Positions 1,030 to 59,744 of a stretch of 64,000 nucleotides of DNA are shown here, one piece after another. Source of the DNA: Torpedo marmorata (lineage: Eukaryota); NCBI GenBank assembly GCA_977017645.1, contig OZ360227.1, positions 148,676,001 through 148,740,000 on the forward strand. Reading direction: 5' to 3'. The position numbers and the translations under genes were made by a program. Each line of letters starts with the position of its first letter. Position 1 is the stretch's first letter. A model generated the notes under the pieces. The model worked only from the letters and a program-made list of their open reading frames with translations, was not told the DNA's origin and searched no databases.

Positions 1030-1810
1030 TGTAAAAATAAGTTGGATCGGCAGGAGATGATAGGTGGAGAAGGGAGGGAGGGGACAGCAGCGATCAGGGG
1101 GAGGAGAGATGGCTGGGTTGGTGAGGGGGAAGGGAGGGGAGAACTAGAAAGACAAGAAAGGGGGAGGGGAAAGAAGGCGAGCAAGTTTAGCAGAAAGCAG
1201 AGAAGTCAATGTTAAGGCCATCTGGCTGGAGAGTGCCCAGAAGGAAAAGAAGGTGTTGTTCCTCCAATCTGCGGGTGGTCAGGATGGGATAGTACATAAG
1301 GCCATGGACAGACATGTGAGTGGGAGAGTGTTGGCTACTGGGAGGTCGCTGTTGTTGCGGGTATTGAGCGAAGCGATCTCCCAATCTGCAACCGGTCTCT
1401 CTGATGTAGAGAAGGCCACAAAGGGAGCACCAGATGCAGTCAATTAGTCCTGTGGAAGTACAAGTGAAGTATTGCTTCACTTGAAAGGCCTGTTTGGGGC
1501 CCCGGACTGTGGTGAGGGAGGAGGTGTGGGCGCAAGTGTTGCACCTCCTGCGGCCACAGGGGAAGGTGCCGGGGGGTGGGTTGGAGGGGAGGGATGAGTG
1601 CACAAGTGAATCACGGAGGGAGCGGTCCCTGAGGAAGGCCGAGAGGGGAGGAATAGGAAAAATGTGTCTGGTGGTGGGATCCTGTAGTAAGTGCCGGAAA
1701 TTCCGGCAGATAATGTGTTGGATGCGGAGGGTGGTAGGTGAGGATGAGGGGGATTCTATGTTTGTTGCGTCTGGGGGCAGAGGGGGCCAGGGCACATGAG
1801 CGGGAAATGG
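1030..1810 (-). mobile_element. Penelope-like element fragment (GIY-YIG endonuclease region plus 3' polypyrimidine tract)
   Basis: ORF 1187..1795 contains PGTFPCGRRRCNTC...FTCTSTGLIDCIWCSLCGLLYIRETGCRLGDRF...TLQPDGLN, the Cys-rich linker and degenerate GIY-YIG domain typical of Penelope-like elements. Confidence 0.85.
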
Positions 1811-1814
1811 AAGC

Positions 1815-2049
1815 TGTAACCCTGCTGAACCTTACATCACAGCACTGAGCGATATTGCACCCATATTGTACTGTCAGTACTTTTATACTTGTTTGTTTGC
1901 TGGAGCGTTTGCTTTTATTCGCAGTTACTTGTAAATAGCACTATTCTTTGTACCTCTGGTTAGATGCTAATTGCATTTCATTGGCTTTGTATTTGTACTT
2001 GGCACAATGGCAATAAAGTTGAATCTAATCTAATCTAATCTAATCTAAT
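1815..2049 (+). mobile_element. LINE 3' tail fragment ending in (AATCT)n
   Basis: CAATAAAGTTG followed by about 5 copies of AATCT; no coding part retained. Confidence 0.5.
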
Positions 2050-3940: not shown

Positions 3941-6900
3941 AGATAAGAATAGTGTTTATAGACATTTATAGTGGGGTTAATTGTTAAGATATTATATGTT
4001 TAATTGTCTTTAATAAATATAAATTTCAATTTTACCCCTTTTGCATTGCGTCTTCTGTTATTGCTGGTTTGAATTTGCAAAACTTTCTTTACAACCCTGT
4101 CTTACCTGTGATGCCAGTTTCAGGGAATTATGTATCTGTATTCCCAGATCCCTTTGTTCCTCCGTATTCCTCAGTGCCCTACCATTTACTCTGTATGCCC
4201 CACCTTGGTTTGTCCTTCCAAAATGCAATACCTCACACTTCTCTGCATTAAATTCCATCTGCCATTTTCTGGCCCATTTTTCCAGTTGGTCCAGATCCCT
4301 CTGCAAGCTTTGAAAGCCTTCCTCGCTGTCCACAACACCTCCAATCTTAGTGTCATCAGCAAACTTGCTGATCCAATTTCCCACATTATCATCCAGATAA
4401 TTGATATAGACAACAAACAACAATGGTCCCAGCACTGATCCCTGAGGCACACCACTAATCACAGGCCTCCAGTCTGAGAAGCAATCATCCACTACCACTC
4501 TCTGTCTTCTCCCATTCAGCCAATTTTGATTCCAGTTTGCAACCTCTCCATGTATACCTAGTATCTGAACCTTCTGAACTAACCTCCCATGTGGGACCTT
4601 GTCAAAGGCCTTACTAAAGTCCATGTAGACAACATCCACAGCCTTTCCTTCATCTACTTTCTTGGTAACCTCCTCGAACAACTCTATAAGATTCATTAAA
4701 CTCGACCTACCACGAACAAAGCCATGCTGACTATCATTAATCAGCCCTTGGCTGTCAAATACTTGTATATCTGATCTCTCAGAACACCCTCCAATAATTT
4801 ACCTACTACTGACGTCAGGCTCACCGGCCTGTAATTTCCTGATTTACTTTTGGAGCTTTTTTTAAACAACGGAACAACATGAGCTACACTCCAATCTTCC
4901 GGCACCTCACCCGTGGCTAAGGACATTTTAAATATTTCTGCCAGGGCCCCTGCAATTCCTACACTAATCTCCCTCAAGGTCCAAGGGAATATCATGTCAG
5001 GCCCGGGGGATTTATCTACCTTTATTTGCTGTAAGGCAGCAAGCAACTCATCTTTAATCTCCATATGTACCATTCCACTACTGCTTGTTTCCCTTCCTTC
5101 CTTATACACTATGCCAGTTTCCTGGGTAAATACTGATGCAAAAAAACTGTTTAAGATCTCCCCCATCTCATGAAATTCCACACAGAGACGACCACTCTGA
5201 TCTTCTAGGGGACAAATTTTGTCCCTTACTATACTTTTACTCTTAACATACTTGTAGAAACCCTTCGGATTTACCTTCCCATTATCTGCCAAAGCAACCT
5301 CATGTCTTCTTTTTGCCTTCCTGATTTCCTTCTTGTATTTTCTTACATTTTCTATACTCTTCTAGTACCTCATTTGCTCCTTGTTGCCTATACCTGCTAT
5401 ACACCTCTCTCTTCTTCTTTACCAGATCGCCAATATCCCTTGAAAACCAAGGTTCCCTATGCCTGTTAACTTTGCCTTTAATCCTGACAGGAACATGAAA
5501 ACTCTGCACTCTCAAAATTTTGCATTTGATGGCCTTCCACTTACTGAAAACATCCTTGCCAGAAAACATCTTATCCCAATCCACTCTTCCAAGATCCTTT
5601 CTCATTTACACAAAATTGGCCTTTCTCCAATTTAGAATCTCAACTCGAGGACCAGACCTATCCTTATCCATAATTAACTTGAAACTAATGACATTATGGT
5701 CACTGGACGCAAAATGTTTGCCTACACATACTTCTGTCACCTGACCTGTCTGGTTCGCTAATAGGCGATCCAGTATTGCACTCTCTCCAGTTGGTACTTC
5801 TATATATTGATTTAGAAAACTTTCCTGAACACATTTGACAAACTCCAAGCCATCCAGCCCTTTTACAGTATGGGAGTCCCAGTTAATATGTGGAAAGTTA
5901 AAATCTCCTACTATCACAAATTTCTGTTTCTTACATCGGTCTGCAATCTCTCTACAGATTTGCTCCTCCAATTCTCTCTAACTATTGGGCAGTCTATAAT
6001 AAAACCCTATCAGTGTGGTCACACCTTTCCCGTTCCTCAGCTCCACCCATTTGGCCTCTGTAGACGAGCCCTCTGGGCTGTCCTGTCTGAGCACAGCTGT
6101 GATATTTTTCCTGACTAACAATTCCACTCCTCCCCCTCTATCACATCTGAAACAACGGAACCCCGGAACATTGAGCTGCCAGTCCTGCCCCTCCTGCAAC
6201 CAAGTCTCACTTATAGCAATAATGTCATAATCCCATGTGCCAATCCATGCCCTAAGCTTGTCTGCCTTTCCGACAATACTCCTTGCATTGAAATAAATAC
6301 ATTTGAGAACATTTCTATCATGTACAAACCTTTTTTCTGTCTATACATGCAGTCCTCACATGACCTTTATCCTCCTCCACCTCACTATCTGCTCTAACAT
6401 TCTGGTTCCCATCCCCCTGCCAATCTAGTTTAAACCCCCCGGAGCAGCACTGGCAAACCTCCCTGTAAGGACGTTAGTCCCTTTCCAGTTCAGGTTCAAA
6501 CCGTCCCGTCGAAACAGGTCCCACTTTCCCTTGAACAGAGCCCAATTGTCCAGAAACATGAAGCCCTCCCTCCTACACCATCTCTTTAGCCACATTTTTA
6601 GCTGCATTAACTTCCTATTTCTAGCCTCACTAGCACGTGGCACAGGTTGCACTCATGAGATCACAACCCTGGAGGTCCTGTCCTTCAACTTTGCACCTAA
6701 CTCCCTAAACTCTCTTTGCAGGACCTTCTCATCCTTCCTACCCACGTCATTGGTCCCTACATAGACCACGACATCTGGCTACTCACCCTCCCTCCTGAGA
6801 ATACCGAGAACTCGATCGAAGATATCGCGGACCCTGGCACCAGGGAGGCAACAGACCATCCAGGATTCTCGATCTCTCCCACAGAACCTCCTATCTGTCC

Positions 6901-12800: not shown

Positions 12801-12934
12801 TATATGTTTGGTGAGGTCCAATCCCGTGCACATACTGTATATTAACAGAAAATTAGATGATTGAACCAACTCAAATTTGTACAGGTGCACAGGATACACA
12901 TGTCGGAGCACAGTAAACCTTTCCAGAATCACCT

Positions 12935-13488
12935 TGTAGCGACTTTGATCCAATAAATAGTCGCTTGGAGGCTAGGTGAGACACTTGTTCGTGACACATT
13001 TCAATTAATTTACTACCAAGTCCAATAGGTTCAAAAGGTTTATTAACACACGATGACTTGTAGCAATCTATAATAACGTAACAATCTTCTTTAACAAAAT
13101 ATGAACGATTCGCGATAACGGTCAATGAAAATTATGGGAGCCTCACTCACCCTCCTCAACTTTATGCCGTCATAAGGCTCAATGCGGGCTAAATGCCTGC
13201 CACAATTGCGCCTAAAGCTTTGCTCTTGCGCAAAGCTTTCCTATCCGCGGACCGCCCGCGCATGCGCCAGCCGGCACTACAATACACCTACCCACTGTGC
13301 ATGTGCCTGCCGGCACTCCAATATACGAACGCACTGAGCATGCTCCAGCCGGCAATCCAATATACGAATGCACTGCGCATGCTCCAACCGGCACTTGCAC
13401 ATTCGCACTACAACAAAGATGGCCTTATAAACCCCGGGATGAAAACTAAACAAGGTAAGTAAACAAATTACCCATTTTGGTTCCTACA
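12935..13488 (-). repeat. 3' LTR of the BEL element (554 bp, four copies of a 39-bp unit)
   Basis: Direct repeat of 18252-18724; GCATG cores at 13260, 13299, 13338 and 13377. Confidence 0.93.
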
Positions 13489-13725
13489 ATACCAGCCCCT
13501 AATTATTATAATGAGACGTAATGTCTTAAATAATAATTACACAATCAAGTACAAATAACAATAAACATATAACATTCAAATAATATACAAATCTTCTTTC
13601 TTCATAAGACCAGAGGTTACCAGCACATAGCCTTGGAAAAGAGTGATCTTTACCATCACTCTGGATCAATAAAGTCTGTAACCTGTGTAGTTGGCAAAAG
13701 CAACAAAATAAAGTCATTTTGTACA

Positions 13726-15165
13726 TCAAAGTTCCTCTGTCTCCAGAATCTTTGAGTTAAAATGTCGACCAGTAAACCTCAAATCTTCCTCAGACAAAAT
13801 AGATACAGTTTTCCTTTTGAATTTAACATCAGGCACTTCTTCAGCATGTTGTTTCACTTTCTTCCTTTCTTCAGCATTCCACTTCTCATAGGAAGAATTT
13901 GAACTCTCAGAACTAGATTTTGAAGAATTATCTGATCCTCTCGATTTTAATAAACGAGTCTCTTTAAACATTCCTGCAACAGATTTGCTCATCTTTTTCT
14001 TTCTTTTCCACAGTTGTTCATAGATAAGGTAAGATTCAAATGACATTATTTCTTCAAACTCATCAACAACCACCACATTTGTAGAAACCTTCTGTAAAGA
14101 GGTCGACTGGTTCCACGTATGGCTCATACAAATCTATTTAACTAAAACTGTAGTCTTTTCAACCACTTTAGTTTCTATTGCCTTTTCCTGCAATTTCACA
14201 TCCAAATTTGCAACTTTCAATTCAGTCTCATTTTCTGACCATTTATTTTGAATCCTTTTATTAGATTCTCTTTCTGTATCCAATTATTTCAATAAGAAAG
14301 TAATTCTCTCATTATCTTCTGAGAAATTAATCACTTGATCTAAAGTGAAAAGATCATGTGATACATCGGTACTTCTACTGTCAGCCCTGCTGTGGTAAAC
14401 TTGAAATATTTGAATTTCTTCATCTTGCTTGTTACATTGCTGCAATGCAATATCACTTTCTTTCTGCTTTGTTAGTAGCTGGGCCTTCAAGTTACATTCT
14501 TAATTGTTTTCTATAGTCAGCTGTTTTGTGTGATTAACCAATGACTTGTTCTCTTTCAAAAGATGAAACTCTTCCTCCAACCTTTTACATCTTGATAATG
14601 CTGAATCTCTTTCCTCAATAACTGTATTTATTTCTTCAGCAGTTATTCTTTTCTTCCACTTTCTGGCTTTGCAAATTATATTTACAATTAAACCTTTCTG
14701 GTTACTGTTTTCATGATTATCCAATATTTCCAATTCCTTTTTCAACATTTTGTTCTCTGAATACAGTTGCATTAAATTGTCAGTCACATTCTTCTTTATT
14801 CAATCAGCACAATTTTCTGCGTTCGCCAGTTTTGCAGCATGTTGCAACATTTCTTCATTGACCTTGTCTGCTGTAACCTCTGAGCTACAAAAGCTACTTT
14901 CAAATTTGTTCTCAATCATTTGTTTTGATCCCGCCTCAGATTTAATTACACAGGAATAATCACCAGTAGTATTTGCAACATCTTCTAATACATAATTTTT
15001 ATCTATTTCTGATGAAAATAATTCCTTCAATGTTGTTTTAGATGCCTTTGATTTATTTTCACATTGATTGTTTTCTTTTCTTCAAGTGACTTTCTTATTT
15101 ACAGTCTTTTGCTGTTCCCTTAACTCATCAAATTTCACAACCAAAATCCTGTTAACATTTATCGC
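13726..15165 (-). pseudogene. Decayed C-terminal coiled-coil frame replacing RT/RNase H/integrase, including a MIPOL1-like segment
   Basis: ORF pieces 14800..15030, 14500..14787, 14284..14490 and 13726..14127 share one frame and are separated only by stops; they follow the BEL post-protease motif VNRILVVKFDELREQQ. Confidence 0.75.
14389..14700 (-). pseudogene. MIPOL1: Captured intronless MIPOL1-like coiled-coil fragment
   Basis: KGLIVNIICKARKWKKRITAEEINTVIEERDSALSRCKRLEEEFHLLKE...LTIENN*ECNLKAQLL...ALQQCNKQDEEIQIFQVYHS resembles, from recall, MIPOL1 KMRITAEEMSALIEERDAALSKCKRLEQELHHVKE...LTAENNQERALKAKLL...LEEEIQTLRVYYS. Confidence 0.78.
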
Positions 15166-15169
15166 TAAC

Positions 15170-17789
15170 TTACTGAGCAATATCATTATTTCTTTCCAAT
15201 GGTCCTTTGATTGTCGAACTAAGCACTGTTTTAATAGCATAAGGTCCATTTCCCCTACTCTGTATTACTTCTAGTGGTTCCAAAGCCTTCGGTACATTTG
15301 AACCAAACTGCATCTCCACCTCAGAATTAACTTCAAGTATATAAACCATCCACAGATAAGACAACTGATGGATATCGTTTTGATGTGGAAAGTTTCCTTC
15401 GTGCACAGGCATAGTCTTCTGAGTGTATAAAATTGGAAGATCACAAAAATCTTTGTCATGTAATCCACAAACATCTAAGCCTGCAACAATGCTGGTTTCA
15501 AGGAGCTTTTCTTGTCCCATGGTTTTCAACATAATCTTCCCTGAAGATTAAGTTTGTTCATTAGTCCCACCGTGCAAAAAGACGCAGTGCTGCCTGGGTC
15601 GAGAAATCCATAAGTACATACTGTTGCATTCCCTTTCTTGCTCTTGTCTTGTACAGGCACTATTGAAAGTTTGCAGTTATCCACACCAGCCCCAGTAAGA
15701 CCACTTGTCTGAACCGAGGCTATAATACTGTTTTCTGATGTTTCCTTTGTTTCTGTTTGCTCCTTTTCCAATTCCTTGCTTCTTTGGTGGATATGCAGCA
15801 TTCTAGGATACTTCAAAGTGCATATGTTACAGTTAAGTCGCTTCTCGCAGTTTTTACTGATGTGGCCTTTACACAGACAGCTACAACATACTCCATTTTC
15901 CTTTAAAAAAGCGATCTTATCATTATGTTCCTTCTTTTCCAACCATAAACACATTTCCAAAGCATGTGCACCTTTACAGAACAAACAACTCTTCTCATTA
16001 GGCAAACTATCCTTTTCCTTAGTTACTTTATCCCTTTCTTTATTTAAAACTGACACAGTAGTAGCAAAACTACTCCTTTTCAATTTCGGACCAGGCTGTG
16101 AGTTAGACCTCCTTACATCTTTGTTCCTCATTGAAGTATCTCTGGTATTCCCATATATTGGATCTGTTTCAATGTACACCTGCCGTTCAAGGAAAACTAC
16201 CAAATTCTTTAAGGTAGCTCTTTGATCGTATTTTTCCTGGAAATCACAAGCCAAATTTCTCCATCTATCCCACATCCGGTAAGGTAATTTATTTAAGATG
16301 ATTCACATATTACCAGGCACGTCAAGCTCACAAATATTATCGATATCTTCCATGGCATTACAATATCCTCTTAAAAAGTGAGTGTATGCTTGTAGAGTTT
16401 TTACATCATTCGGTTTTATTGATGACCATTTAAGAGCTTTATCCATATAAGCTAAAGCAATTTGATGTTTGTTGCCAAAATGCTGTTCGAGTAAAGACTT
16501 AGATCTGTTTAATCCTCTATCCGAAGACATACGTTAACAATTCTTTACAAGTTCCCTTGGCTGTCCTTCTGTGAACATTTCCAAATAATAAAGACATTCT
16601 TCAGGGTCTTGCCATTTATTTTCAATATTGCATCTAAAAGATCTCATGAACGCTTGGTACTGAAGTGGGTCACCATCAAAAGCTTGTATCTCTTTCTTGG
16701 GCAGAGAGACTGTAGTTGGATCAATGATGCAGCGATTTCATTTTGTTTTCCCATGGATGATAGAACGTTGCTCTGTTCACTGCCTCTTGTAACAGGTTCT
16801 GTATCTGGAAACCTCACTGGTGTATGTTCTCCCGTATTTCTGATGCTTGACTCAAATGCCAAGGGAGCTGCAGCGTTTTACCGAACCCAAGCCGCAGCTT
16901 TGTCTGTGGATGTTACCACTGGTACATGTGACTTTATAACACCATGCTCTGGGAGGATTTGTCCTTGTATATGCATGTCTTGTACCCGTGGTACTAAAAT
17001 ATCTACCCTTTTGACTGGTTTCCTTTCCTGTGGCTCTTTTTTAAAATATGATTTCTTATCATCATACACTTTAGATAATTTACTCCGAACACCAGATACC
17101 ATTCAGCCTTCTGGTAGCTCCATTCTGGCCCTGGTAATAGCAATGTTTGCTTCCAGCTCCTGCTGCTCCTTTCTCTGCTTTAGCTGCTGCCTTAGCTGCT
17201 GCTGTCTCTGCCTTTGCTGCTCTTCCTCTTCTTCTAAAACATGTTTATCCTTAATCGATTTTTATCGTGCAAGAAGAGCTGCCAATTCAGCTTTAATCAT
17301 TGTACTTGACGATGCAGAACTTGAAGTATGAGAAACTCTGGAGCTTAAACCAGAAGAACTTTGTTTGCTTCCCCTGCTTTCAACATTTGACACACTGTCA
17401 CTTGATTGTATTTCGTCCTGCAGGTCAGATGTTGACTTCTTACTTACCCCTTTCTCCAATTCAAATTGTACATCCTTTGCATTTTCATCCTCTTCGTTTT
17501 CTTCATCTTTATCATTTTCTTCATCACCATTTGGTGACACATCTTCAGCGATTTCGACGTTGCTGTCTTCATGTTCAGTCGTTGTCTTCTGCAATGGTTT
17601 TGCAATGTCTTCATTCCCATCAACCAAAGTCGTGGCTTCTTCCACCGCCAGCTTCAGTCTTGCAATGAGAACACTTTTATTTCCACTTGTATCTAGTTTC
17701 CATCACCTTAGTTCTTCTTTGAGATCCGCAACCTTCATGTCTTCAATACGTTGATCCTCAACAGCAACATCAGCGGCTGCTGCGGCCAT
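15170..17789 (-). pseudogene. Decayed BEL SAP-Gag-protease polyprotein
   Basis: ATG at 17789 (MAAAAADVAV); SAP domain; acidic linker; DSVSNV/serine-rich and coiled-coil gag region; CLFCKGAHALEMC, CCSCLCKGHISKNC and CNICTLKYPRMLH knuckles; TYGFLDPGSTASF protease; stops and frameshifts. Confidence 0.85.
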
Positions 17790-18251
17790 TTTACTCGTCT
17801 TATTCCACCGTCCGTTGAGCATGCACAACACAAGCCAAATCAACAGTCCCCAATGGACAAGCGGCATCAAAATCCAAACTGTATTCACACTTGCCAAAGA
17901 TACACAGAAGGAGTCATTAGATGTATGCCTACCACTTCAGATGGCTGTAATATACTGCTATTAACAAACGAGTCTCCACCGCAGCATCCGTCAATAATAT
18001 CGCTGATTTTCAAGAAATGGCTTCACCAACGTGTTTATAGGACACTTTACTATAAGATTAGAAGCTCCGAATCCCTCTCTGGCTATTACTCATGGCAGAT
18101 GGATGTGGATTACAAACTGCCCCTAACTCGAGGCATTTCCAAGATGGCCACCATTTTATTTTAAATATCAATCCAAAGCACAGAGAGATTATTTTCTATC
18201 TTCTATCCTTCAATTTTCTGTTCCAATCAATACATTTTTTTGTTGACTAAA

Positions 18252-18724
18252 TGTAGCGACTTCGATCCAATAAATAGTCGCTTGGAGGCTAGGTGAGACA
18301 TTTGTTCGTGACGCATTTCAATTAATTTACTATCAAGTCCAATAGGTTCAAAAAGTTTATTAACACACGATGACTTGTAGCAATATATAATAACGTAACG
18401 ATCTTTAACAAAATATAAACAATCCGCGATAACGGTCAACGAAAATTATGGGAGCCTCACTCACCTTCCTCAACTTTATGCCATCATAAGGCTCAATGTG
18501 GGCTAACTGTCTGCCGCAATCGCGCTTAAAGCTTTGCTCTTGCGCAATGCGTTCCCATCCGTGGACCCCCCACGCATGCGCCAGCCGGCACTCCAATTTG
18601 CGAATGCACTGCGCATGCTCAAACCGGCACTCGCACATGCGCACTACAACAAAGATGGCCTTCTAAACCCCGGGACGCTGACTAAACAAGGTAAGTAAAC
18701 AAATTACCGATTTTGGCTCCGACA
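18252..18724 (-). repeat. 5' LTR of the BEL element (473 bp, two copies of the ~39-bp unit)
   Basis: Direct repeat of 12935-13488. Confidence 0.93.
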
Positions 18725-19003
18725 CACCTTATGTGCATACAGAGTGTAATTCCATCACTTGACACATAACAGTGCTGCATTAAAAAATAGAATTTCTAGG
18801 CCCTGTACTTTCGCAAAGGTACAAGCAATGTTAAAGTTTTGATAGGTACCTGGCTAAGAGTTGAAATCTGAGGAACTGTTTCTACGTCCGTGAAAAGCAA
18901 AATACAAGCAGCTATCTTAAAGCAAAAGACGATGGTAATTAGGTAGACCAAAATAAATGGCAGTGAAGAATGAAACTCCCTTTTCACAAAACTAGTTTTA
19001 GGT

Positions 19004-22000
19004 AGGAAAAATTTAATTGGAAAAAAATTGCATTATAATACGTTACAAACATATAAAATGGAAAAATTAATTGAAAGAACTAAGCAAAGATATTATGAAC
19101 TGGGAGAAAGAGCGCATAAAGTGTAGGCGTGGCAATTAAAGAAAGAACAAACTTCTAGAACTATAAATGCCATAAAAAAGAGTTCAAAGAAAATAACGTA
19201 TAAACCTTGAGAAATAAATGATTCCTTTAAGGAATTTTATTTAAATTTATATAAATCTCAAACTGATAAAGATGATTCTAAAATTAATGAATTTTTATCT
19301 AAAATTAAGTTACCTAGATTAAATACTCAAAGTAAAGAACTTTTAGATTTGTCGTTCTCGATGAGGGAAGTCAATGATGTTCTTAGTTCTTTAACGAGTG
19401 TAAAATCTCCAGGGGAGGATGGTTTCCCATCAGAATTTTATAAAGAGTTTAAGGATTTATTGATACCTCCATATATGGAGGTGTTGAAACAAATAACGGA
19501 AACTCATTCGTTACCGGAAACATTTTCAAATGCAATAATTACAGTTAGACCTAAAAAAGATAGAGATGTGTTGAAAGCAGAATCATATAGACCAATTTCA
19601 TTGTTGAATGTGGATTATAAGATAATGGAATGGCAAAAAATTTAGCAAATAGAGTGGCTAAATATTTACCAGATTTAATCCATGTAGATCAAGCTGGATT
19701 TATTAAGAATAGATATTCAAAAGATAATATAGCTAGATTAATTAGTTTAATAAATGTGGCACAAAAAAAGAGGAATTAGCATTAGTATTAACATTAGATG
19801 CCGAAAAGGCTTTTGACAGATTAGAGTGGAATTATTTATTTAAAGTATTGGGGAAATTTGGTTTTGGGACTACATTTATTAATTAGATTTAAACTATATA
19901 TAAAGAACCTTCTGCTAGAGTGGTGACAAATGGACAGATTTCTTCAAAATTTTCTTTGACTGGGTCATCTCGACAAGGATGTCCTTTGTCACCTGCATTG
20001 TTTATTTTAGCAATAGAACCTTTGGCAGAATTAATTAGACAAGATATTAAGATTGCAGGTATTAAAGTTGGAAGAGAAGAGTATAAAATTAGTTTATTTG
20101 CAGATGATGTATTGATTTATATGACAAAACCTATTACTTCTTTAATACAATTGAATGTTTTATTGAAAGAATACAGGGAAATATCTGGTTATAAGATTAA
20201 TTCTGATAAAAGTGAAATTATGGCATTGACACAAGGGGATTATAGTAAATGTAAAGAAATTACACAATTTAAATGGTCAAAGGAAGGAATTAAATATTTG
20301 GGAATAAAGATTGATACAAAATTAGCCAATGTATATAAATTAAATTATTTACCATTATTTATGAAAATTAAAAAAGATTTAGAAAGTTGGAAGGATTTAC
20401 CTATAACTTTAATAGGAAGGGTAAATTGTATTAAAATGAATGTGTTTCGAAGAATTCAATATCATTTTCAATCAATTCCTTATGAAATTCCTCCAAAATT
20501 CTTTAAAGATTTAAATTTAATTATTAGGAAGTTTTGTGGAAAGGAAAGTTGGCTAGAGTAGGTACGGAGAAATTAACTTGGAATTATGAAATGGGTGGTT
20601 TACAACTTCCTAATTTTCAAAATTATTATAAAGCAGCTCAATTAAAATTTGTTAATGAAATGTTTGATTTAGGAAAATCTTCTGCTTGGATTAGAATAGA
20701 ATTAAATAATATAGGAGAAGATTTGAAAGAAGAAGTTATTTATAAATGGAATTCTAAATTATTATTAACAAGAGGGAAAAATTCTCCTATTTTTAAACAT
20801 TTGTTAGAAATATGGAATAGAGTGGATATGGAGATAGGAGGGAAAGGGTTAATTTCTGGAAAAATGCCTTTATATCAAAATAAACTTATTCCATTTACTG
20901 TTGATAATCAATTATTTAAAATTTGGTTTCAAAAGGTAATTAAGAAAATAAATGATTGTTTTGAAGCTAGTAAATATATTACTTTTCAAAGAATGAAAGA
21001 AAAGTTTAATGTATTAAACAATACACTTTTTGCTTATTATCAAATCAGAGCATTTTTAGTTGAAAGGTTGGGTTATAGTTTGACTTTACCAAGACAAAGT
21101 GAACTGGAATTATTAGTTACTAATGGAGGTGTAAATAAATTTATTTCTCAAATGTATAGATTGTTACAGAGAAAAATGCCTAAATTTGGAACTCACAAAT
21201 CAAGATTAAATTGGGAATCAGATTTGAATGTAACAATAGACGAAGAACATTGGCAAGAATTATGTAAACTAAGTATGACAAAGATTATTAATGTTAGATA
21301 TAGATTCGTGCAATATAATTTTTTTCATCAATTATATTTAACACCTAAAAAATTAAAGAAATTTAATCTGACATTATCTGGTTTATGTTTTAGATGTAAT
21401 AGAGAGGAAGGTTCTTTTGTACATTCTACATGTTTCTGCCCAAAGATATATTATTTTTGGTTGAAAGTTAAAAAAATTTTTAGATAAAGTATTAAGTATT
21501 ACACTTCCAATGGACCCTATGATATTTTTGTTTGGAGATATTAAAATAATTAGTATTAAGATGAAATTAAATATGTATCAAATAGAATTTTTGCGAATTG
21601 CTTTAGATTTTTCTAAGAAATGCATTGCTATTACTTGGAAATCTGATGTAGATTTAGGGTTAGAAAGATGGCATGCAGAACTTCGTTCGTGTATACCACT
21701 TGAAAAAATTACTTATAATTTACGTAATAAATATCATTTCTCTTTGAAAATATGGAGCCCATTTATAAAAACTGTTGGTTTAAGGATTTGAAGATCTCTG
21801 GATATCAGATCTGACTGGCGAACCTATCTTCCACAATAAATTCAGTTTATAGTTGTTCTTTTTTAGATTGACATCTTCCTGACTCTATCTTTTACTTTCT
21901 TTCTTTTCGGGTGGGTTAGGGAGGGGAGGGAGGGAGGGGGGGGTGAAAATGTATCACATGTATTTTGATAATTTTGCATTTTATATTCTGTATTCTGTGA

Positions 22001-25533: not shown

Positions 25534-26028
25534 ATAACTGGTGATCTCTTCTGACAGATCATCTTTTAGGCCATGAAGGTGAAAGTTTACTTGTAAAATT
25601 AAACAAACAAATTCACCACATGTGGTCATATCAGGTCTGATTTGATATGAATTCAAACATAAATATGAAATGTAAAACAAAGTTAAAATAAAAGTTAATT
25701 TTGTTTCCACTTTATCCCTATAATATTCCCTGAAAATACAGAAAACAATATTTTAAAGACATCATTAAAATTAAATTCTTGGTTCCCATGTGCTTTAATG
25801 CTGCTCTTGTTCAGTTTATTTTGAAAATAATTTAGTGTCTTATTATATTCATCACCTTCAAGAAACAATTTGGCCTGATAATGGAAAATGGTTGGTTCTT
25901 ATGAACCAGCATCTTTGCCAGCAGTCAACAACTTCAGGAACACAGTGGAAAAAGGCAATCAGAGGGAGAAAACATATTGAATTAAAACTACACAACTTAA
26001 CATTAATCATTTAAAAAAAATAATTAAA

Positions 26029-26973
26029 TCCTCACTGATTATCAACACAGGCGCACCCCAAGGATGCGTGCTTAGCCCACTGCTCTACTCGTTATACACC
26101 CATGACTGTGTGGCCAGGCACAATTCCAATGCCATCTACAAGCTTGCCGATGATACCACAGTTGTTGGCATAATCACAAACGGCAATGAGGAAGTGTACA
26201 GGAGGGAGATAGATCAGCTCGCTGAATGGTGTAACAACAACAACCTTGCGCTCAACGTCAGCAAAACCAAGGAGATGATTGTGGACTTCAGGAGGAAGTC
26301 AGGGGAGCACGACCCAGTCCTCATCGAGGGCTCAGTTGTGGAGAGGGTCAAGAATTTCAAATTCCTGGGTGTCAACATCTCCGAGGATCTGTCCTGGAGC
26401 CTCCACGTTGAAGCAATCACAAAGAAGGCTGGCCAGCGGCTATACTTTGTGAGGTGTCTGAGGAGATTCGGTATGTTACCGAAGACTCTCGTAAACTTCT
26501 ACAGGTGTACCGTGGAGAGCATTCTGGTTGGTTGCATCACTTCCTGGTATGGAGGCACCAACTCTCAGGACAAGAATAAACTCCAGCGGGTTGTTAACTC
26601 GGCCTGTGACATCACAGGCACCAGACTTCACTTCATCGAGGACATCTACATGAGGCGGTGTCTTAAAAAGCAGCCTCTATCCTCAAAGACTCCCACCACC
26701 CAGGCCATGCTCTCTTCACTCTGCTACTATCGGCAAAAAGGTACAGGAGCCTAAAGACGAGCACTCAACGGCACAAGGACAGCTTCTTCCCCACTGCCAT
26801 CAGATTCCTGAATAACCAATGAACCATAGACACTGCCTTACTTTTCGTGCACTATTATTTATATTTTTTATAGTAATGTCGTAAGATGGTTATAATATGA
26901 ATGTTTGCACTATGATGCTGCTGCAAAACACCGAATTTCATGACTAGTTCATGACAGTAAATTCTGATTCTGA
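26029..26973 (+). mobile_element. Rex1/Babar-like LINE, 5'-truncated
   Basis: ORF 26068..26754: [44 protein letters not shown]; ATTCTG tail. Confidence 0.9.
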
Positions 26974-49925: not shown

Positions 49926-52900
49926 TTACAAATTGAGTCGATCAGGCGGTCGAGTCCGCCGCTGTGATCGGCGCAGTACTTGTGGTGATGGGGCAGGTGG
50001 CAGAGCTGCCTGCTGCCTGATCTGGAGTACCGGCACGTCTGGTGATCGCGAAACCTCAGATGAATATGCTGGTAAGTTTGGTGTCTCTTGTGTGTCCTTA
50101 GTGGTAGGTAAGGGGGTAACCGTAACTACGGGGTGGTCGAGGGCAGCGGCGGGTCCCAGTGCTCCTGCGGACGCCAGGTCCCGGATGGAAACCGTGTCTT
50201 CCCGCCCATCAGGAAAAGCCACGTAGGCGTACTGGGGGTTCGCGTGTAATAATTGGACCCTCTCGACTAATTTATTTATTTATTGCTCCTGACATGTTTC
50301 CGGAGCAGCACTGGCCCTGAGGACGTCAGCCATGCTGGTAGGGTAGTCCCGGTGGTCGACTTCTTGGGGAAGGAAAAGAGTCTCTCATGAGGTGTAGCAT
50401 TGGTGGATGTACATAGCAGGGATCGGATAGAGTGGAGTGCCTCGGGAAGGACTTCTTGCCAGCGGGAGACTGGTAATCCCGTAGACCTGAGGGCTAAGAG
50501 TGTGGCTTTCCAGACCGTGGCGTTCTCCCTCTCCACTTGTCCATTACCCCGTGGGTTATAGCTCGTGGTCCTGCTAGTCGCGATACCCTTGGCCAGCAGG
50601 TATTGTCGCAGCTCGTCACTCATAAATGAGGACCCTCGGTCGCTATGGATGTAGCAGGAGTATCCAAACAGCGTGAAGAGTTTGTGGAGGGCCTTTATGA
50701 CTGAGGTGGTCGTGGTATCGGGGCAGGGGATGGCGAAAGGGAACCGCGAGTACTCATCAATAACGTTGAGGAAGTACACATTGCGGTCGGTGGATGGAAG
50801 GGGGCCCTTAAAGTCGACGCTTGGTCGCTCAAATGGGCAGGTCGCTTTTATTAACTGTGCCTTGTCAGGACGGTAGAAGTCCTGACCTCTTCCAGGGAGT
50901 ACAGTAGATTACGGGCTTTCACAAAGTGAAAAAGCCTGGTGACTCCGGGGTGGCAGAGGTCACAGTGGAGGGCATATAACCGGTCGATCTGTGTGCTAGC
51001 GCACGTCCCCCAGGATAGAGCGTCGGAGGGATCATTGAGCTTCCCGGGCCGGTACATTATATCGTAGTTGTTGGTGGAGAGTTCGATCATCCACCTCAGA
51101 ATTTTATCATTTTTGATTTTACCCCGCTGCTGGTTGCTGAACATGAATGCGACTGAGCGTTGGTCAGTCAGCAGGGTAAACCTTTTTCAGGCGAGATAGT
51201 GCCTCCAGTGCCTGATAGCTTCCACTATGGCTTGGGCCTCTTTCTCCACCGCTGAGTGCCGAATTTCTGGGCCTTGAAGGGTACGGGAGAAGAACGCCAC
51301 CGGTCTTCCCGCCTGGTTGAGGGTAGCAGCCAGTGCGAAGTCGGACGCGTCACTCTCTACTTGGAAGGGAGTGGACTCGTCCACTGTGTGCATTGCTGCT
51401 CTGGCAATGTCCCCTTTTATGAGGCTGAAAGCCTCACGTGCATCCGTTGAAAGGGGAAAAGTGGTGGACTTGACAAGGGGGCGGGCCTTGTCCGCATAAT
51501 TAGGGACCCATTGGGCATAGGAGGAAAAGAAACCCAAGCACCTTTTGAGGGCTCTGAGGGTGTGGGGAAGCGGTAGTTCCAACAGGGGGCGCATGCGGTC
51601 GGGGCCGGGGCCGATGACCCCGTTCTCCACAACACACCCCAGGATAGCGAGTCGGGTGGTCCCGAATACGCACTTATCCTTGTTATAGGTGAGGTTAAGT
51701 GCTTTGGCCGCCTGGAGGAACTTCTGAAGTTTGTTATCGTGGACCTGGCAGTCGTGGCCGCAGATGGTGATGTTATCTAAGTATGGAAAAGTGGCCTTTA
51801 ATTTGCATTGGTCCACCATCCTGTCCATCTCCCTCTGGAAAATGGATACGCCATTTGTGACACCAAAGGGAACACGCAGGAAATGATAGAGTCTGCCGTC
51901 CGCCTCGAAAGTGGTGTAGGGGCGGTCCTCCCGGCAAATGCGGAGCTGGTGGTAGGCAGATTTGAGGTCTATGGTGGAGAAAAGCTTATACTGAGCTATC
52001 TGGTTCACCATATCTGCAATGCGTGGTAGAGGGTACGCGTCAAGCTGCGTGAACCTATTGACGGTCTGACTATAATCTACCACCATACTGTTTTTGTCCC
52101 CGTTCTTGACGACAACCACCTGGGCCCTCCAGGGACTTGTACTCGCCTCGATGATCCCTTCCCCAAGTAACCGCTGCACTTCTGACTTAATGAATGCCCT
52201 GTCCCCTGCGCTATATCTCCTGCTTTTGGTTGCCACAGGTTTACAATCAGGGGTCAGGTTGGCGAATAGCGATGGGGGCGGGATCTTGAGGGTGGATAGA
52301 CTGCAAGTAGTGTGGTGTGACAAAATATTCTTGCTGTTCTTAAGGTGATTGCCGACAGTAATCGGTGGGAGGGGCTCGTCATAATCTATAGTCACACTTT
52401 GGAGGTGACTCTGGAAGTCGAGGCCCAGTAGTACAGGTGCGCACAGTCGGGGCATGACCAATAGCGTGAAGTCCCGGTATTCCGTGCCCTGTACCACTAT
52501 CGTCGCTACACAACCCCCCTGGATGTCTGTTGTGTGCAATCCGGAAGCCATGGAAACCCTCTGGCTTACCGGCTGTGTCGTGAGGCCGCATCGCTGTACC
52601 GTGTCAGGGTGGATGAAGCTCTCTGTGCTGCCTGCGTCGAACAGACAGTTTGTCCTGTGTCCCTCGACCAGAATGTTCATCATCGACCTCGCGAGTTGGT
52701 GGGGTGCACTCTGGTCGAGTGTAACTGACGCCAACGTTGGATCGCTGTCTTGATCCGACGTCGCGATGGAGTGCCTGCTGTCCCGGGATAGCGGCACCCT
52801 GTGTCGGCTCGTTGGCGTGGAACAAAATGGCCGCTCCCATGACTCGCACGTGTTGGCGGCGGGTAGGTAAGATGGCGGCGACAGAAGTGACGAAACACAA

Positions 52901-53916
52901 GATGGCCGCCCCCATACCTCGCACGTGTTGGCCGCGGCCGCGGGTAGGTAAGATGGCGGAGGCGGAAGTGACGACACGCAAGATGCCCGCCCCCGAGTCT
53001 CGCATGCGGCGCTGCTCAGTCCCGCTCGCGGTTTAGATCTACAGACCTTAGCGAAGTGGCCTTTCTTCCCGCAGTTGGAGCAGGTCGCTTCTCGGGCCGG
53101 GCAACATTTCCGGGGGTGCTTCTCAAGCCCGCAGAAATAGCATTTCTCGGGCTCGCGGCTGATGGCCGCAGTGGTCAATTAGCTGGCATGGTGGGGGGTC
53201 GGCAGCATCCACGGGGCCTGCTGGAGATCGCGCGCCTGCATAGCATCCGAATTCTGTAGTGCGGCCTCCAGCGTGTCGGCCAGTTCGATCGCGGAACGGA
53301 AGGTGAGGTCAGCTTGTTCCAGCAGCCGCTGGCGCATATACACTGACCTGGTCCCCGTAACAAAAGCGTCTCTCACTAGGAGCTCTGCATGCTGTTCAGC
53401 CGTCAGTCCCCGGCAGTCTCAGGCCCACACGAGTGTTTTTAGGGCTTGTACGAACTCCACGCTCGACTCCCCGGGCCGCTGCTGCCGCGTCGCTAGCCTA
53501 TGTCTTGCATATACGGTATTCACAGGCCGTATATAAGACTCTAATGGGCAGAGGATTTAAGGGTTATGGGGATAAGGCTGGTAAGGGGTACTGATAGTAG
53601 TGATCAGCCATGATCTGTAAAATGGCGGTGCTGGCTCGACGGGCTGAAGGGCCTACTCCAGCTCCTATTGTCTATTGTCTATATACTGTCTTTTAAGCGT
53701 ATTCATCGCGTCCTCATAAGTCTGCAGAACTTGGATCATAGAGTAGACTCGTGGGCTTACCCAAGAGAGGAGGACCTTGCGTTTTGCGGCGTCTTCTTGC
53801 ACTTTGATCTCCTCCAGAAACGATTCAAAACAGGCTAGCCAGAGTTCGAAGGCATTGCCAGCTTCCGGTGTTTGTGGGTCGAGGTCCAGTTTGTCTGGTC
53901 TCAAGACATTCTCCAT
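49926..53916 (-). pseudogene. Gypsy gag-pol, broken by stops, frameshifts and an insertion
   Basis: ORF pieces 53665..54066, 53179..53376, 51187..53178 (663 aa), 50851..51144, 50276..50779 and 49926..50222. Confidence 0.9.
53536..53679 (+). mobile_element. Short CR1-tail insertion in Gypsy gag
   Basis: TATATA duplicated on the flanks; (TATTGTC)n tail; same sequence family as 45081-45223. Confidence 0.85.
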
Positions 53917-54618: not shown

Positions 54619-57600
54619 CTTTTTTTTTTTTAAATATTTTATTTGAAATTTTTAAATCACACAATACACAGTTTAAAACGCAAATTTCTCAAATTGCATG
54701 TGATACATTTTCACCCCCCCCTCCCTCCCCTCCCTAACACTCCCAAAAAGAAAGAAAGAAGAAGAAAAGGATAGAGTAAGGAGAATGTCAATCTAAAAAG
54801 AACAACTATAAACTGATCTTATTGTGGAGGATAGGCTCGCCAGCCAGAACCGATGTCCAGAGATCTTCAAATCCTTAAACTCACAATTTTTATATATGGG
54901 CTCCATACTTCCAAAAAGAAATGATACTTATCACGTAAATTATATGTAATTTTTTCGAGTGGTATGCATGAACGCAATTCTGCGTGCCATCTTTCCAACC
55001 CTAAGTCTACATCCGACTTCCATGTGGTGGCAATACATTTCTTAGAAACGGCTAAAGCAATCCGTAAAAATTCTGTCTGGTACATATTTAATTTCCCTTT
55101 AACACTGGTTCCTTCAATATCTCCAAACAAAAATATCATAGGATCCATTGGAAGTGTAGTTCCTAATACTTTATCTAAACATTTTTTAATTTTCAACCAA
55201 AAATCATAAACTTTTGAACAAAACCATGTAGAATATACAAAAGAACCTTCCTCTTTATTACATCTAAAACATAAACCAGATAATGTCGGATTAAATTTCT
55301 TTAGTCTTTTAGGTGTGAAATATAGTTGATGAAAAAAATTATATTGCACCAATCTATATCTAACATTAATAATCTTCGTCATACTTCGTTTACATAATAT
55401 TTTCCAATGCTCTTCATCTATTGTTACATTCAAATCTTTTTCCCAATTTAATCTTGATTTATGAATTCCTGTTTTAGGAAGTTTCCTCTGTAACAATCTG
55501 TACATTTGAGAAATAAATTTAGGCACACCTCCATTAGTAACTAATAATTCCAATTCAGTCTGTCTTGGTAAGGTCAAACCGCAGCCCAACCTTTCCCCTA
55601 AAAACGCCCTAATTTGATAGTAAGCAAAGATTGTATTATTTGCTACACTAAATTTATCTTTCATTCTCTGAAACGTAATAAATTTACCAGCTTCAAAACA
55701 ATCATTTATTTCCTTAATTCCCTTTTGGTACCAAATTTTAAATAGTTGATTATCGACAGTAAATGGAATAAGTTCATTTTGATATAGTGGCATTCTTCGA
55801 GAAATTGATCCTTTTGCTCCTATTTCTCTATCCACTCTATTCCATATTTCTAACAAGTGCCTAAAAATAGGGGAATTTTTCCCTCTTGTTAATAATAATT
55901 TAGAATTCCATTTATAAATGACTTCTTCTTTCAAATCCTCTCCTATATTATTTAATTCTATTCTCATCCAAGCAGAGAGCTTCCCTAAATCAAACAATTC
56001 GTTAATAAATTTTAGTTGGGCTGCTTTATAATAATATTGAAAATTAGGAAGCTTTAGACCACCCATTTCGTAGTTCCAGGTTAATTTCTCCAATCCTACT
56101 CTTGCCAACTTTCCTTTCCACAAAAATGTCCTAATAATTAAATTTAAATCCTTAAAAAACTTCTGAGGGATTTCATAAGGAATTGATTGAAAAAGATACT
56201 GAATTCTCGGAAAAACGTTCATTTTAATACAATTTACCCTTCCCATTAAAGTTATAGGCAAATCCTTCCATCTCTCCAAATCCTTTTTTATATTCACAAA
56301 TAGTGGTAAATAATTTAATTTATACAAATTGGATAATTTTGTATCAATCTTTATTCCCAAATATTTAATTCCTCCCTTTGCCCATTTAAATTGTGTAATT
56401 TCTTTAAATCGCTATAGTCCCCTTGTGTTAAAGGCATAATTTCACTTTTATCCGAGTTAATCTTGTAACCAGATATTCCCCCAAATTCTTTCAATAAAAC
56501 AGACAATTGTGTTAGAGAATTAATAGGTTTTGTCATATATATCAATACGTCATCTGCAAACAAACTAATTTTGTGTTCTTCCTTACCAACTTTAATACCT
56601 GCAATCTTACTATCTTGTCTAATTAATTCGGCTAAAGGTTCTATTGCTAAAATAAACAATGCTGGCGATAAAGGACAACCTTGTCTAGTAGACCTGGTTA
56701 AGGAAAATTTTGAAGATATTTGACCATTTGTGACCACTCTAGCAGACGGTTCTTTACATATAGTTTTAATCCAATTAATAAATGTATTTCCAAAACCAAA
56801 TTTTTCCAGTACCTTAAATAAATAATTCCACTCTAATCTATCAAAAGCCTTTTCGGCATCTAATGTTAATACTAATGACAGTTCTTCTCTTTTTTGTGCC
56901 ACGTTTATTAGACTAATTAATCTAGCGATATTATCTTTTGAATATCTGTTTCTAATAAAGCCTGCCTGATCTCCATGGACTAAGTCTGGTAAGAACTTAG
57001 CCACTCTGTTTGCTAAAATTTTCGCCATTATTTTATAATCCACATTTAACAACGATATTGGTCTATATGATTCTGTTCTCAACAAGTCTCTATCTTTTTT
57101 CGGTATAACTGTTATTAATGCATTGGTGAAGGATTCCGGTACAGAATGGGTTTCCGTTATTTGTTTTAACACCTCCATATAAGGAGGAATCAATAAGTCC
57201 TTAAATTTCTTATAAAACTCTGATGGGAAACCATCCTCCCCTGAGATTTCCCACTTGTCAAAGAACTAAGAACCCCATCGACTTCCCTCATCGTAAATGG
57301 TGAATCTAAAGATTCTTTACTAAGTGCATCTAACCTGGGCATCCTAATTTTGGATAAAAATTTGTTAATTTTAGAATCATCTTTATCGGCTTGAGATGTA
57401 TATAAATTCAAATAAAAATCTTTGAAAGAATCATTTATTTCTCGCTGTTTATAAGTTATTTTCTTAGAATTCTTTTTTATAGCCGTTATAGTTCTAGAGG
57501 TTTGTTCCTTCTTTAATTGCCAGGCTAAAACTTTATGAGCTCTTTCTCCCAGTTCATAATACCTTTGCTTAGTCCTTTCAATTAGTTTTTCCAATTTATA

Positions 57601-59744
57601 TGTTTGTAACGTATTATAATATAACTTTTTCCCAATTAAATCTTTCTTCTTTTCTTCTGATCTCTTCTTTTGTAGATCCTTCTCCAAAAATTCAATCTCC
57701 TTCTCCAAATTATCCAATTCCTGAATATTTTCCTTCTTAACTTTTGCTGAGTAACTTATTATCTGACCTCTTAAATAAGCTTTCAAAGCATCCCAAATAA
57801 TAAATTTGTTTTCCATGGAATCTGTGTTAATCTGTAAAAATTCTTGGATTTCTCTTCTTATATATTTACAAAAATCCACTCTCTTTAGTAAAGAAGAGTT
57901 AAACCTCCATTTATATATAATTTTTTCTTTTTCTGGAATTATGCACGACATTAATAAAGGCGAGTGGTCAGAAATTAATCTAGCCTTATATTGTACTTGA
58001 GTCACCCTATCCTGTAATTGTGATGACAGCAAAAACATGTCTATTCTAGAATAAGAATCATGTCAAGAGGAATAAAAGGAGTAATCTTTTTCTCTCGGAT
58101 TCAACTTCCTCCAAATATCAATTAGATTCAGGTCTTCCATCATCGTTAGAATTCTCTTAGCAGTTTTAGTTCTAATAATTGATTTGGATATTTTATCCAT
58201 TACTGGGTCCAGACAACAATTAAAATCTCCACCAATTAAAATATTATCGTATGCCTCTGACAGATGCATAAAGGAATCTTGAATAAATTGATCATCTTGC
58301 GTATTCGGCACATATATATTCATAAGAGTCCACATTTCTGAGTATATCTGACAGTTAATTAAGACGTATCTTCCTGACCCATCAGTAACCACTGAATGTA
58401 TTTTAAGGGGTAGCTTCTTATTAACTAGAATAGCGACCCCTTTAGCCTTGGAATTAAATGAAGATGCCACCACTTGACCAACCCAATCTCTTTTCAACTT
58501 CTGATGTTCTAAATCAGTCAGATGCGTCTCCTGTAATAAAGCTATGTCTGCATTCAATTTTTTGATGTACGCTAAAGTTTTCTTCCTTTTAATAGGGTTA
58601 TTGAGCCCATTTATATTAATACTAACTACATTTATTAATTTACTGTCCGCCATTGCTGATGTACAATAACTTTCTCTCCCTCGGATCCGCTGGCTCCCCC
58701 CCCCCACATCTGTAAACTATTTGACATCTCCTTAGAAGAAAAAAGAGAAAAGGATATAAAAAGAGAATAGAGAACGAGAGAACCCCCTATATATAATACT
58801 GGTAAATTTACACCAGTACTACCCCCCTCCATTGCTCGGGAAGTGGCCCTCGCCACTAAAATGACGCGCGACTAGGTCAAGGAAGACCAGAAGTCCATCT
58901 CCCCCATACAGATTCCGAACAAATTATGTTATCGTCTCTTCGTCAAACAACTCCAAGATTCCTATTAACTTAATCTTCATCGGTTACTACCCCATTGACA
59001 TGTTCCAAAACTCTTGACGAGAGCAATTTTAATGATTTGGTGACGCTCCGTAAAACCTTGACCTTTCTTTGAGTCTGGAAGCATATTTGCATGATGTAAA
59101 GCTTCTTGGGGATCAGTAAAGAACATTGATTGGTTCTCTGCAGACTGCACTCTCAATGTCGCAGGATACCTAAAAGAAAATTTATAACCTTTTCCCCACA
59201 AAACCGCTTTTGCCGGATTAAATTCCTTCCGTTTCTTTATGATTACCGAACTCAAATCCGCGTAGAAAAATACCCTGTTCTTATCGATTCTCAACGGGTC
59301 CTGCTGAATTCTTGCTTTTTGTATAGCCAATTTCAATATTTTTTCCTTATCTTGATATCTTAGGCATCTAATTAGAATTGAGCGTGGCCTTTGATCAGGA
59401 TACGGTTTCCTCCTGCTATCCCTGTGGGCTCTGTCCAGTTCAAATCCATTCGGAAAGTGATCCTTTCCTAAGGTCTGCGGGATCCAGTCTTGAAAAAAAG
59501 TAGTTGGAATGGTTCCTTCAAAATCCTCAGGCAGTCCCACAATTTTAATATTATTTCTTCGGCTTTGATTTTCTAATACATCTAATTTTTGTAAAAGTTT
59601 GTTCTTTTGCAGCTCCCAACCCGTGAACGAATCTTCCACTTTGTCCACTCTGTCCTTGTAGTCCACCAAATCTTCATCGTGTTCCTCAACCTTTTCTTCA
59701 ATTTTCTTAACCCTCGATGACACTTTATCCACAATGACTGAAAA
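54619..59744 (-). mobile_element. L1/Tx1-clade LINE (element B): most of ORF1, complete frameshifted ORF2, poly(A)
   Basis: ORF1 58977..59732 (ENQSRRNNIKIVGLPE); ORF2 endonuclease NINGL, LQETH, GGDFN, SDH; RT FADD; poly(T) at 54620-54632; same family as 19004-22050. Confidence 0.95.

Follow-up and report, generated by a model that had tools for sequence, protein, structure and literature searches.

Spliced host cDNA with a back-splice-type exon joint in the open frame of a BEL/Pao retrotransposon family of Torpedo marmorata

Results

Architecture of the element and its cargo

The window analysed here, a stretch of 64,000 nucleotides from the ray Torpedo marmorata (assembly GCA_977017645.1, contig OZ360227.1, positions 148,676,001 to 148,740,000), contains on its minus strand, at 12935..18724, a long terminal repeat (LTR) element of 5,790 bp, which belongs as a decayed copy to a non-autonomous family of BEL/Pao LTR elements. 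Where reverse transcriptase (RT), RNase H and integrase would be expected, the element contains spliced host cDNA from three genes, BRCA1, MIPOL1 and Elongin A, which continues the reading frame, and the MIPOL1 part carries an exon joint of the kind produced by back-splicing. The LTRs lie within 0.2-1.2 kb and, together with a polypurine tract (PPT) and a 5-bp target-site duplication (TSD) with CACCT at both flanks, represent features of BEL/Pao elements, all of which had been recognised correctly in an earlier note made from the DNA alone (the original prediction; Table 1). Pfam analysis of the window copy, translated with stops read as X, returned a SAP domain (E 7e-10) and the BEL Gag domain DUF1759 (E 1e-6), while SAP was the sole Pfam match of a young intact cargo copy and no Pfam family was found in the cargo. 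Relative to the commonest letter in each column of 40 aligned copies, the window copy has diverged by 4.5%, and a variable tandem repeat of ~39 nt in the LTRs (window 13278-13400 and 18574-18640) accounts for differences in LTR length.

Homology to autonomous BEL elements is lost at 15109 and returns at 13745, leaving 1.36 kb of non-pol sequence, and the comparison with the autonomous helper described below revealed neither RT nor RNase H nor integrase after the protease. Across this region the post-protease frame (15264-13729, 512 codons) contains 5 stops, compared with 40 and 60 in the other two frames of the same anchored stretch, and ends at 13726, about 240 bp from the 3' LTR, as had been predicted for a non-pol stretch of about 1.4 kb. 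Instead of the single coiled-coil module proposed at that time, protein searches identified three host genes as donors: MIPOL1 (E 4e-64), BRCA1 (E 4e-26) and Elongin A (E 5e-5). The corresponding host loci were located on C40 for MIPOL1 (one match each), on C61 for BRCA1 and on C41 for an intron-containing Elongin A, and the host exons were mapped with their splice sites; exon numbers (E, B) were assigned in this analysis. The cargo of the window copy reads BRCA1 B10-B11, MIPOL1 E7-E8-E9, MIPOL1 E3-E4 and the start of E5, a 17-nt linker, Elongin A E4 and E6, and a BEL integrase tail, with all pieces in sense orientation and native frame and no intron at any joint.

Reading of the joints revealed neither a poly(A) nor a separate TSD around the host pieces. 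The BRCA1-MIPOL1 joint shows about 2-4 nt of microsimilarity, and short linkers occur at the BEL-BRCA1 and Elongin A-BEL joints, for which the exact parental BEL element was not found. The linker between MIPOL1 and Elongin A in the old subfamily matches the LTR start of copy L198 at 17/17 positions and is exact in eight of ten old copies, which suggests the trace of an intermediate in which an LTR end abutted MIPOL1 cDNA. The nearest named proteins in MIPOL1 searches came from Narcine bancroftii, to which the host MIPOL1 exons are mostly 84-96% identical. For the BRCA1 part, an ESM Atlas label as MIPOL1-like (0.94) was rejected, as the DNA maps there to BRCA1 exons; a word-index search among proteins of 253-805 aa gave nothing, and BRCA1 was identified when the search was made exhaustive. 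Introns of host MIPOL1 itself harbour at least four copies with cargo, in both orientations (G000:C40:64320001-64720000, L072-L111), and a second, 67% match to an Elongin A exon, containing a stop and possibly representing a paralogue or an old retrocopy, was noted at G000:C25:175318125-175318316 (minus strand).

A scrambled MIPOL1 exon order

MIPOL1 exons in the element run 7-8-9 and then 3-4-5, with the donor end of E9 fused base-exactly to the acceptor start of E3, a feature missed by the original prediction. The joint lies at annotated splice sites and was mapped in 44/44 copies; in the host, E9 ends at a GT donor and E3 begins after an AG acceptor about 206 kb upstream, within a gene that spans >320 kb. 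Of the MIPOL1 exons only E3-E5 and E7-E9 are found in the cargo, hence none from outside the putative circle, and the BRCA1 and Elongin A pieces are colinear, leaving MIPOL1 alone scrambled. The chance of a random switch hitting both exon ends was calculated as about 4e-5, or 1e-3 if 2-nt slips are allowed (three exon lengths being estimated). No tandem duplication of host MIPOL1 was detected in 400 kb, each exon being single with its intron flanks (the small E6 and the last exon remained unmapped), and a genomic tandem duplication was therefore rejected as the cause of the exon order. The joint is also spanned, with 31 or more letters to either side, by contigs of sequencing runs from organisms B and C; coverage of C is low, and the assembly may itself derive from B. 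A low-depth contig from organism D bridges the BRCA1-MIPOL1 joint. Non-colinear exon order is a criterion for pseudogenes derived from circular RNA (circRNA) according to PMC4897178, and judged from the exon arrangement, the MIPOL1 part was probably copied from a circRNA.

Copy number, mobility and subfamilies

Three mutually exclusive patterns of 25-26 nt across the E9|E3 joint yielded 3,743, 5,151 and 147 exact matches in the genome, the last pattern being identical to both host exon ends, while reversed controls yielded 0; the total of 9,041 places is a lower bound on the number of copies. With the non-pol stretch as query, 8,822 candidates came up in the 6.2-Gb genome, and the coiled-coil region, whose restriction to the window copy would have spoken for a later insertion, is not confined to it. 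All 40/40 scored matches were near full length and, excluding the self-hit, 92-94% identical. Beside the window copy, 39 further loci were fetched; both LTRs were resolved in 15 of the resulting 40, and these 15 carry 5-bp TSDs (11 exact, four with one mismatch) that all differ from one another, at an LTR divergence of 5.5-8.3%. Insertion of the cargo into the window copy only was thus rejected, since the insert is full length in 40/40 scored copies and moved with the element, which agrees with the predicted mobility of the composite as one unit.

In an old subfamily (10 loci) the cargo measures about 2.0 kb, with BRCA1 starting from B8 and Elongin A comprising E4-E8; these copies are mostly 90-98% identical to the host exons where not deleted, with an LTR identity near 90% in three loci. 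The cargo comprises 1.36 kb in the window subfamily and about 1.08 kb in younger forms, and BRCA1 and MIPOL1 parts were kept in all subfamilies examined. When one young form was used as query, 40/40 scored matches were about 100% identical. Twelve young copies were fetched and 11 analysed, 10 of which have LTR pairs that are 98.8-100% identical; a natural open reading frame (ORF) of 1,289-1,340 aa is present in 8/11 oriented young copies. Several old copies (L194:4700-6000, L198, L201) lack SAP and much of Gag.

An autonomous helper and exchange of backbones

A profile search of the genome with Pfam PF05380 gave 6,618 candidates, from which 20 loci were fetched. Eleven of these, picked for long frames, encode single ORFs of 2,018-2,134 aa with SAP, Gag, protease, RT, Peptidase_A17, RNase H, integrase and DUF5641, and thus represent the predicted autonomous helper with the same LTR ends in intact form. 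Helpers and cargo elements have LTR ends and the core of the primer-binding site in common, and helpers are 92-96% identical to young cargo copies, against a nucleotide identity of about 82% to the window copy with its BEL-type Gag and protease. The helpers L142-L152 (e.g. L150:2493-8849) feature an N-terminal SAP and, upstream of Gag, an acidic segment together with an E/Q-rich repeat that expands in tandem; their LTR pairs are 97-100% identical. It is likely that the cargo element is mobilised by an intact SAP-Gag BEL helper of this kind.

The SAP domain had been regarded in the original prediction as a second host-like addition to the defective element, but capture specific to the cargo element was rejected because intact autonomous partners carry it as well. 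An origin of the domain from SAFB/SLTM found no support, with no match among proteins of 246-2,000 aa, which is weak evidence. Cargo copies interleave with helpers in a tree built from 37 rows of Gag and protease, from which 5 had been excluded for short coverage, and monophyly of the 22 cargo-bearing rows, defined by cargo presence, was rejected by the approximately unbiased test (p-AU 4e-6). The cargo must therefore have passed from one backbone to another, for which recombination within particles that contained both RNAs is the simplest explanation. Twelve young copies combine identical cargo with differing Gag; these were picked by cargo likeness, so that the near-invariance of their cargo is biased.

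An open frame without protein constraint

A stop is the commonest codon in 0/494 codon columns, compared with ~8.6 expected from the divergence to the host (Poisson p 2e-4), and the natural copies L047 and L059 have no stop across the insert, in line with the predicted open ancestral frame. With the natural copy L194 as reference, internal indels that recur in four or more of 28 copies have a length divisible by three in 13/13 cases, a count from which two L194-private frameshifts, terminal joints and events in only two copies were set aside; in contrast, only 8/53 indels of individual copies are in frame (Fisher p 1e-8). Despite a divergence of about 0.27-0.30 substitutions per site, the cargo still reads as an open frame. 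Its ratio of non-synonymous to synonymous substitution rates (dN/dS) relative to host exons is 0.73 in the old subfamily, with few changes, 1.03 in the middle one and 1.09 and 1.10 in the younger ones, the last three being about 1.0-1.1 rather than below 1 as had been proposed as a test; for Gag and protease of the window subfamily relative to the helper it is 0.18-0.5. The MIPOL1 part alone gave 0.9-1.4, varying with the transition weight, and MIPOL1 sites conserved in at least 90% of 20 orthologues have changed like variable sites (30/79 vs 27/78, p 0.74).

Large in-frame deletions have hit parts of all three donors, and the C-terminus differs by subfamily: the old frame runs past the integrase tail in another frame, that of the window subfamily ends on LETEEL, and young frames stop ~420 nt before the LTR. 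The terminal stop lies within about 420 nt of the 3' LTR in all subfamilies described. Taken from the pattern of substitutions and indels, the cargo is likely a stuffer ORF, in which the open frame and not the protein sequence was selected. A domesticated chimeric gene, expected in a single or few copies with a dN/dS well below 1, does not agree with the at least 9,041 junction matches and a cargo dN/dS of about 1.

Discussion

Proposed mechanism

We propose that host RNAs, including a MIPOL1 exon 3-9 circle, would have entered BEL particles together, where template switching by RT would have linked them. The joint of MIPOL1 to an LTR start would reflect an integration or end-joining intermediate that recombined later. 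The chimeric RNA would then be translated as a single SAP-Gag-Pro-cargo polyprotein, and any termination codon well ahead of the 3' LTR would make the RNA a target of nonsense-mediated decay (NMD), so that presumably only frame-keeping variants were copied on. In-frame deletions would have shrunk the cargo from about 2.0 to 1.36 and about 1.08 kb, helper particles would supply RT and integrase, and repeated recombination would shift the cargo onto newer helper backbones. To this whole chain of a circRNA-derived cargo, an NMD-shielded stuffer ORF and helper-supplied RT and integrase, which is built on comparison of genomic copies, we assign a rough probability of 0.62. The fuller history, in which a BEL/Pao element took up a host circRNA in its particle, fused it with BRCA1 and Elongin A pieces and carried it through ~10,000 or more insertions to the present via new helper lineages, has in our judgement an even chance of being correct.

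Several findings weigh against this proposal. Three out-of-frame events were each found in two copies, and a dN/dS near 1 can be the average of purifying and positive selection; the Elongin A part of the oldest group has a dN/dS of 0.37 (8 synonymous and 9 non-synonymous changes). The alignments used for dN/dS held stop columns, 1 in the middle subfamily and 1 and 5 in the younger ones. These are probably due to the terminal stop and to local alignments that extend beyond a joint or deletion, given that natural copies have an open frame at these places. The low dN/dS of Gag in cargo elements may have been imported from helpers via recombination, and the loss of much of Gag from several old copies implies that some lineages may have moved without a Gag of their own. 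Finally, the circle is deduced from DNA, and trans-splicing or exon repetition could give the same E9-E3 joint.

This last point leads to the alternative that the MIPOL1 order stems from a linear RNA with repeated exons, formed by trans-splicing of two pre-mRNAs, or from an RT switch between linear mRNAs. Both processes can yield exon-precise non-colinear joints, and PMC4897178 allows for other mechanisms behind some of them. E9 and E2 both end in AG, offering a 2-nt microhomology, and the captured MIPOL1 piece is shorter than a full turn of the circle and therefore offers no rolling-circle repeat as proof. A random RT switch onto both exon ends has only the low probability calculated above, and it would have to be explained why scrambling is limited to MIPOL1 when BRCA1 and Elongin A are colinear. 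In genes whose introns are very long, joints of this type moreover usually stem from back-splicing, and we consider an origin from linear RNA unlikely.

Other explanations concern the persistence of the cargo. If it were a useful protein module, either a coiled coil aiding co-assembly with helper Gag or a decoy, the dN/dS near 1 would mix constraint and adaptation; the long-lasting open frame, the persistence of BRCA1 and MIPOL1 parts in every subfamily examined and the natural ORF of at least 1,289 aa in most oriented young copies would all be expected. Conserved MIPOL1 residues, however, were not spared, the in-frame deletions affect all three donors and the C-terminus varies by subfamily. 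Furthermore, the position after the protease is where RT is normally cleaved off, and a functional module appears to us a rather improbable explanation. Very improbable is an RNA-level camouflage, in which small-RNA silencing would also strike BRCA1 and Elongin A and the element would thereby escape. The donors do include genome-maintenance and transcription genes, and the cargo copies number in the thousands. A suggestion in PMC5131818 that non-autonomous elements may be less repressed would also fit, but synonymous divergence from the host has reached 0.27 in the youngest and most numerous subfamily, so that nucleotide likeness was not kept, and the conservation of the frame would be left unexplained. 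We therefore favour a circRNA-derived stuffer ORF moved by helpers as the working model.

Relation to known systems

Acutely transforming retroviruses have a defective genome with a Gag-host fusion ORF and depend on a helper, and the host protein is their selected cargo. The ray element resembles them in its defective genome, Gag-host fusion and need for a helper, but shows no amino-acid constraint on the cargo; the analogy to oncogene transduction drawn by the original prediction therefore holds for the capture mechanism and fails for a selected cargo protein, given a dN/dS of about 1. Its further statement that no description of the architecture was known is not supported for multi-gene capture, as PMC5131818 and PMC13317346 describe maize Bs1, an LTR element with fragments of three host genes in a chimeric ORF. 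Each Zea species has 1-5 copies of Bs1, which is regarded as a chimeric gene. Like Bs1, the ray family combines three host genes in one LTR element and one chimeric ORF, with switch points common to its copies. Unlike Bs1, it is a vertebrate BEL/Pao family that numbers at least 9,041 copies and was active recently, and its cargo includes a back-spliced donor and has a dN/dS near 1.

Tan et al. 2016 (PMC5131818) also reported multi-gene capture by LTR elements with secondary retrotransposition from Drosophila and further animals, one case being a chimera of two genes in the Pao element BATUMI. As in these LTR-mediated retrocopies, spliced host cDNA takes the place of part of the internal ORF, genes are joined, in-frame products are frequent and re-transposition is non-autonomous. 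Those retrocopies are young and low-copy, whereas the ray cargo persists across subfamilies with frame-level selection and backbone exchange; the word 'circ' is absent from the main text of PMC5131818. In mouse, circRFWD2 pseudogenes carry a back-splice joint in 33 copies flanked by the LTR sequence MMERVK10C-int, with the mechanism being called mysterious (Dong et al. 2016, PMC4897178). In mouse and ray alike, a non-colinear back-splice joint has become a permanent part of the genome, is present more than once and lies next to LTR sequence. In contrast to circRFWD2, the ray joint lies within a TSD-bounded BEL element, in frame with Gag-Pro and between two captured genes, at >200 times the copy number and with an identifiable helper, and the mouse copies are treated as pseudogenes associated with an endogenous retrovirus. 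Hence, multi-gene capture by LTR elements (Bs1, Drosophila) and circRNA pseudogenes (mouse) are already known.

Compared with the profile of the Belpaoviridae by the International Committee on Taxonomy of Viruses (ICTV; PMC8742986), LTRs, PPT, BEL Gag and protease of the element and the single Gag-Pol ORF of the helper agree. BEL/Pao elements are further characterised by an 18-nt primer-binding site complementary to tRNA-Arg or tRNA-Gly, of which the motif after the 5' LTR, common to element and helpers, is a putative counterpart. The element differs in lacking RT, RNase H and integrase, and element and helper alike carry an N-terminal SAP that is unmentioned in the profile. No description of such an element was found in the literature searched, outside whose scope lay subscription journals, Repbase and supplements of the cited papers.

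Reverse transcription of circRNAs into genomes was left open by PMC4897178, the first description of circRNA-derived pseudogenes, and a back-splice joint in a complete LTR element with a helper and graded subfamilies points to, and makes traceable, capture in retrotransposon particles. If true, the family would preserve, as a fossil record, how an LTR element packaged a circRNA and reverse-transcribed it, and would at the same time be a natural experiment in which RNA surveillance alone keeps a protein-meaningless ORF open. It parts open-frame selection from protein selection unusually cleanly and offers a test for NMD shaping non-autonomous LTR elements. On the practical side, thousands of BRCA1, MIPOL1 and Elongin A fragments mean trouble for ray gene annotation and read mapping, and the cargo fragments may be a source of small RNAs against host genes.

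Feature coordinates and other elements in the window

Table 1. Features of the element and its flanks, in window positions, listed from the element's 5' to its 3' side.
Feature	Position	Strand	Remark
TSD CACCT, element's 5' side	18725..18729	.	
5' LTR, 473 nt, TG...CA	18252..18724	-	Kimura two-parameter (K2P) divergence 0.086 to 3' LTR
Putative primer-binding position	18234..18251	-	TAGTCAA core also in family copies and autonomous helpers
SAP domain, polyprotein N-terminus (ATG at 17789)	17649..17747	-	carried by autonomous helpers too
BEL Gag core (DUF1759), stop-interrupted in window copy	16255..16680	-	
Cys/His zinc-knuckle cluster of BEL Gag	15793..15987	-	read from sequence; aligns to autonomous ORF
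Aspartic protease region (LDPGS motif) and post-protease stretch	15109..15670	-	frameshifted in window copy; upstream BEL homology ends
BRCA1 cDNA fragment, spliced; exons B10 and B11; skate BRCA1 aa about 201-349	14713..15114	-	
MIPOL1 exons E7 (part)-E8-E9, spliced	14390..14712	-	
Back-splice-type joint, E9 end to upstream E3 start, phase 2 to phase 2	14389..14390	-	
MIPOL1 exons E3, E4 and first ~17-20 nt of E5, spliced	14131..14389	-	
17-nt linker like first 17 nt of family LTR	14114..14130	-	15/17 in window copy
Elongin A (ELOA) cDNA fragment: E4 end, E5 mostly deleted, E6 start; spliced	13748..14109	-	
Tail of BEL integrase (LETEEL; stop codon 13726-13728), then 3' untranslated stretch	13501..13745	-	
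PPT adjoining 3' LTR	13489..13500	-	
3' LTR, 554 nt	12935..13488	-	
TSD CACCT, element's 3' side	12930..12934	.	

The window holds further mobile elements. A Gypsy-type LTR element is indicated at 50276-53178 (minus strand), where the translated frames show motifs of a zinc knuckle, protease, RT, RNase H and integrase. Long interspersed nuclear elements with ORF1, endonuclease and RT frames lie at 54867-59744 (minus strand), 59864-61759 (plus strand) and 19893-21487 (plus strand), which we take to resemble L1/Tx1. Fragments at 4058-5361 (minus strand), 25981-26754 (plus strand) and 1187-1831 (minus strand) presumably correspond to CR1, a Rex/L2-type RT and a Penelope-like GIY-YIG endonuclease, respectively.

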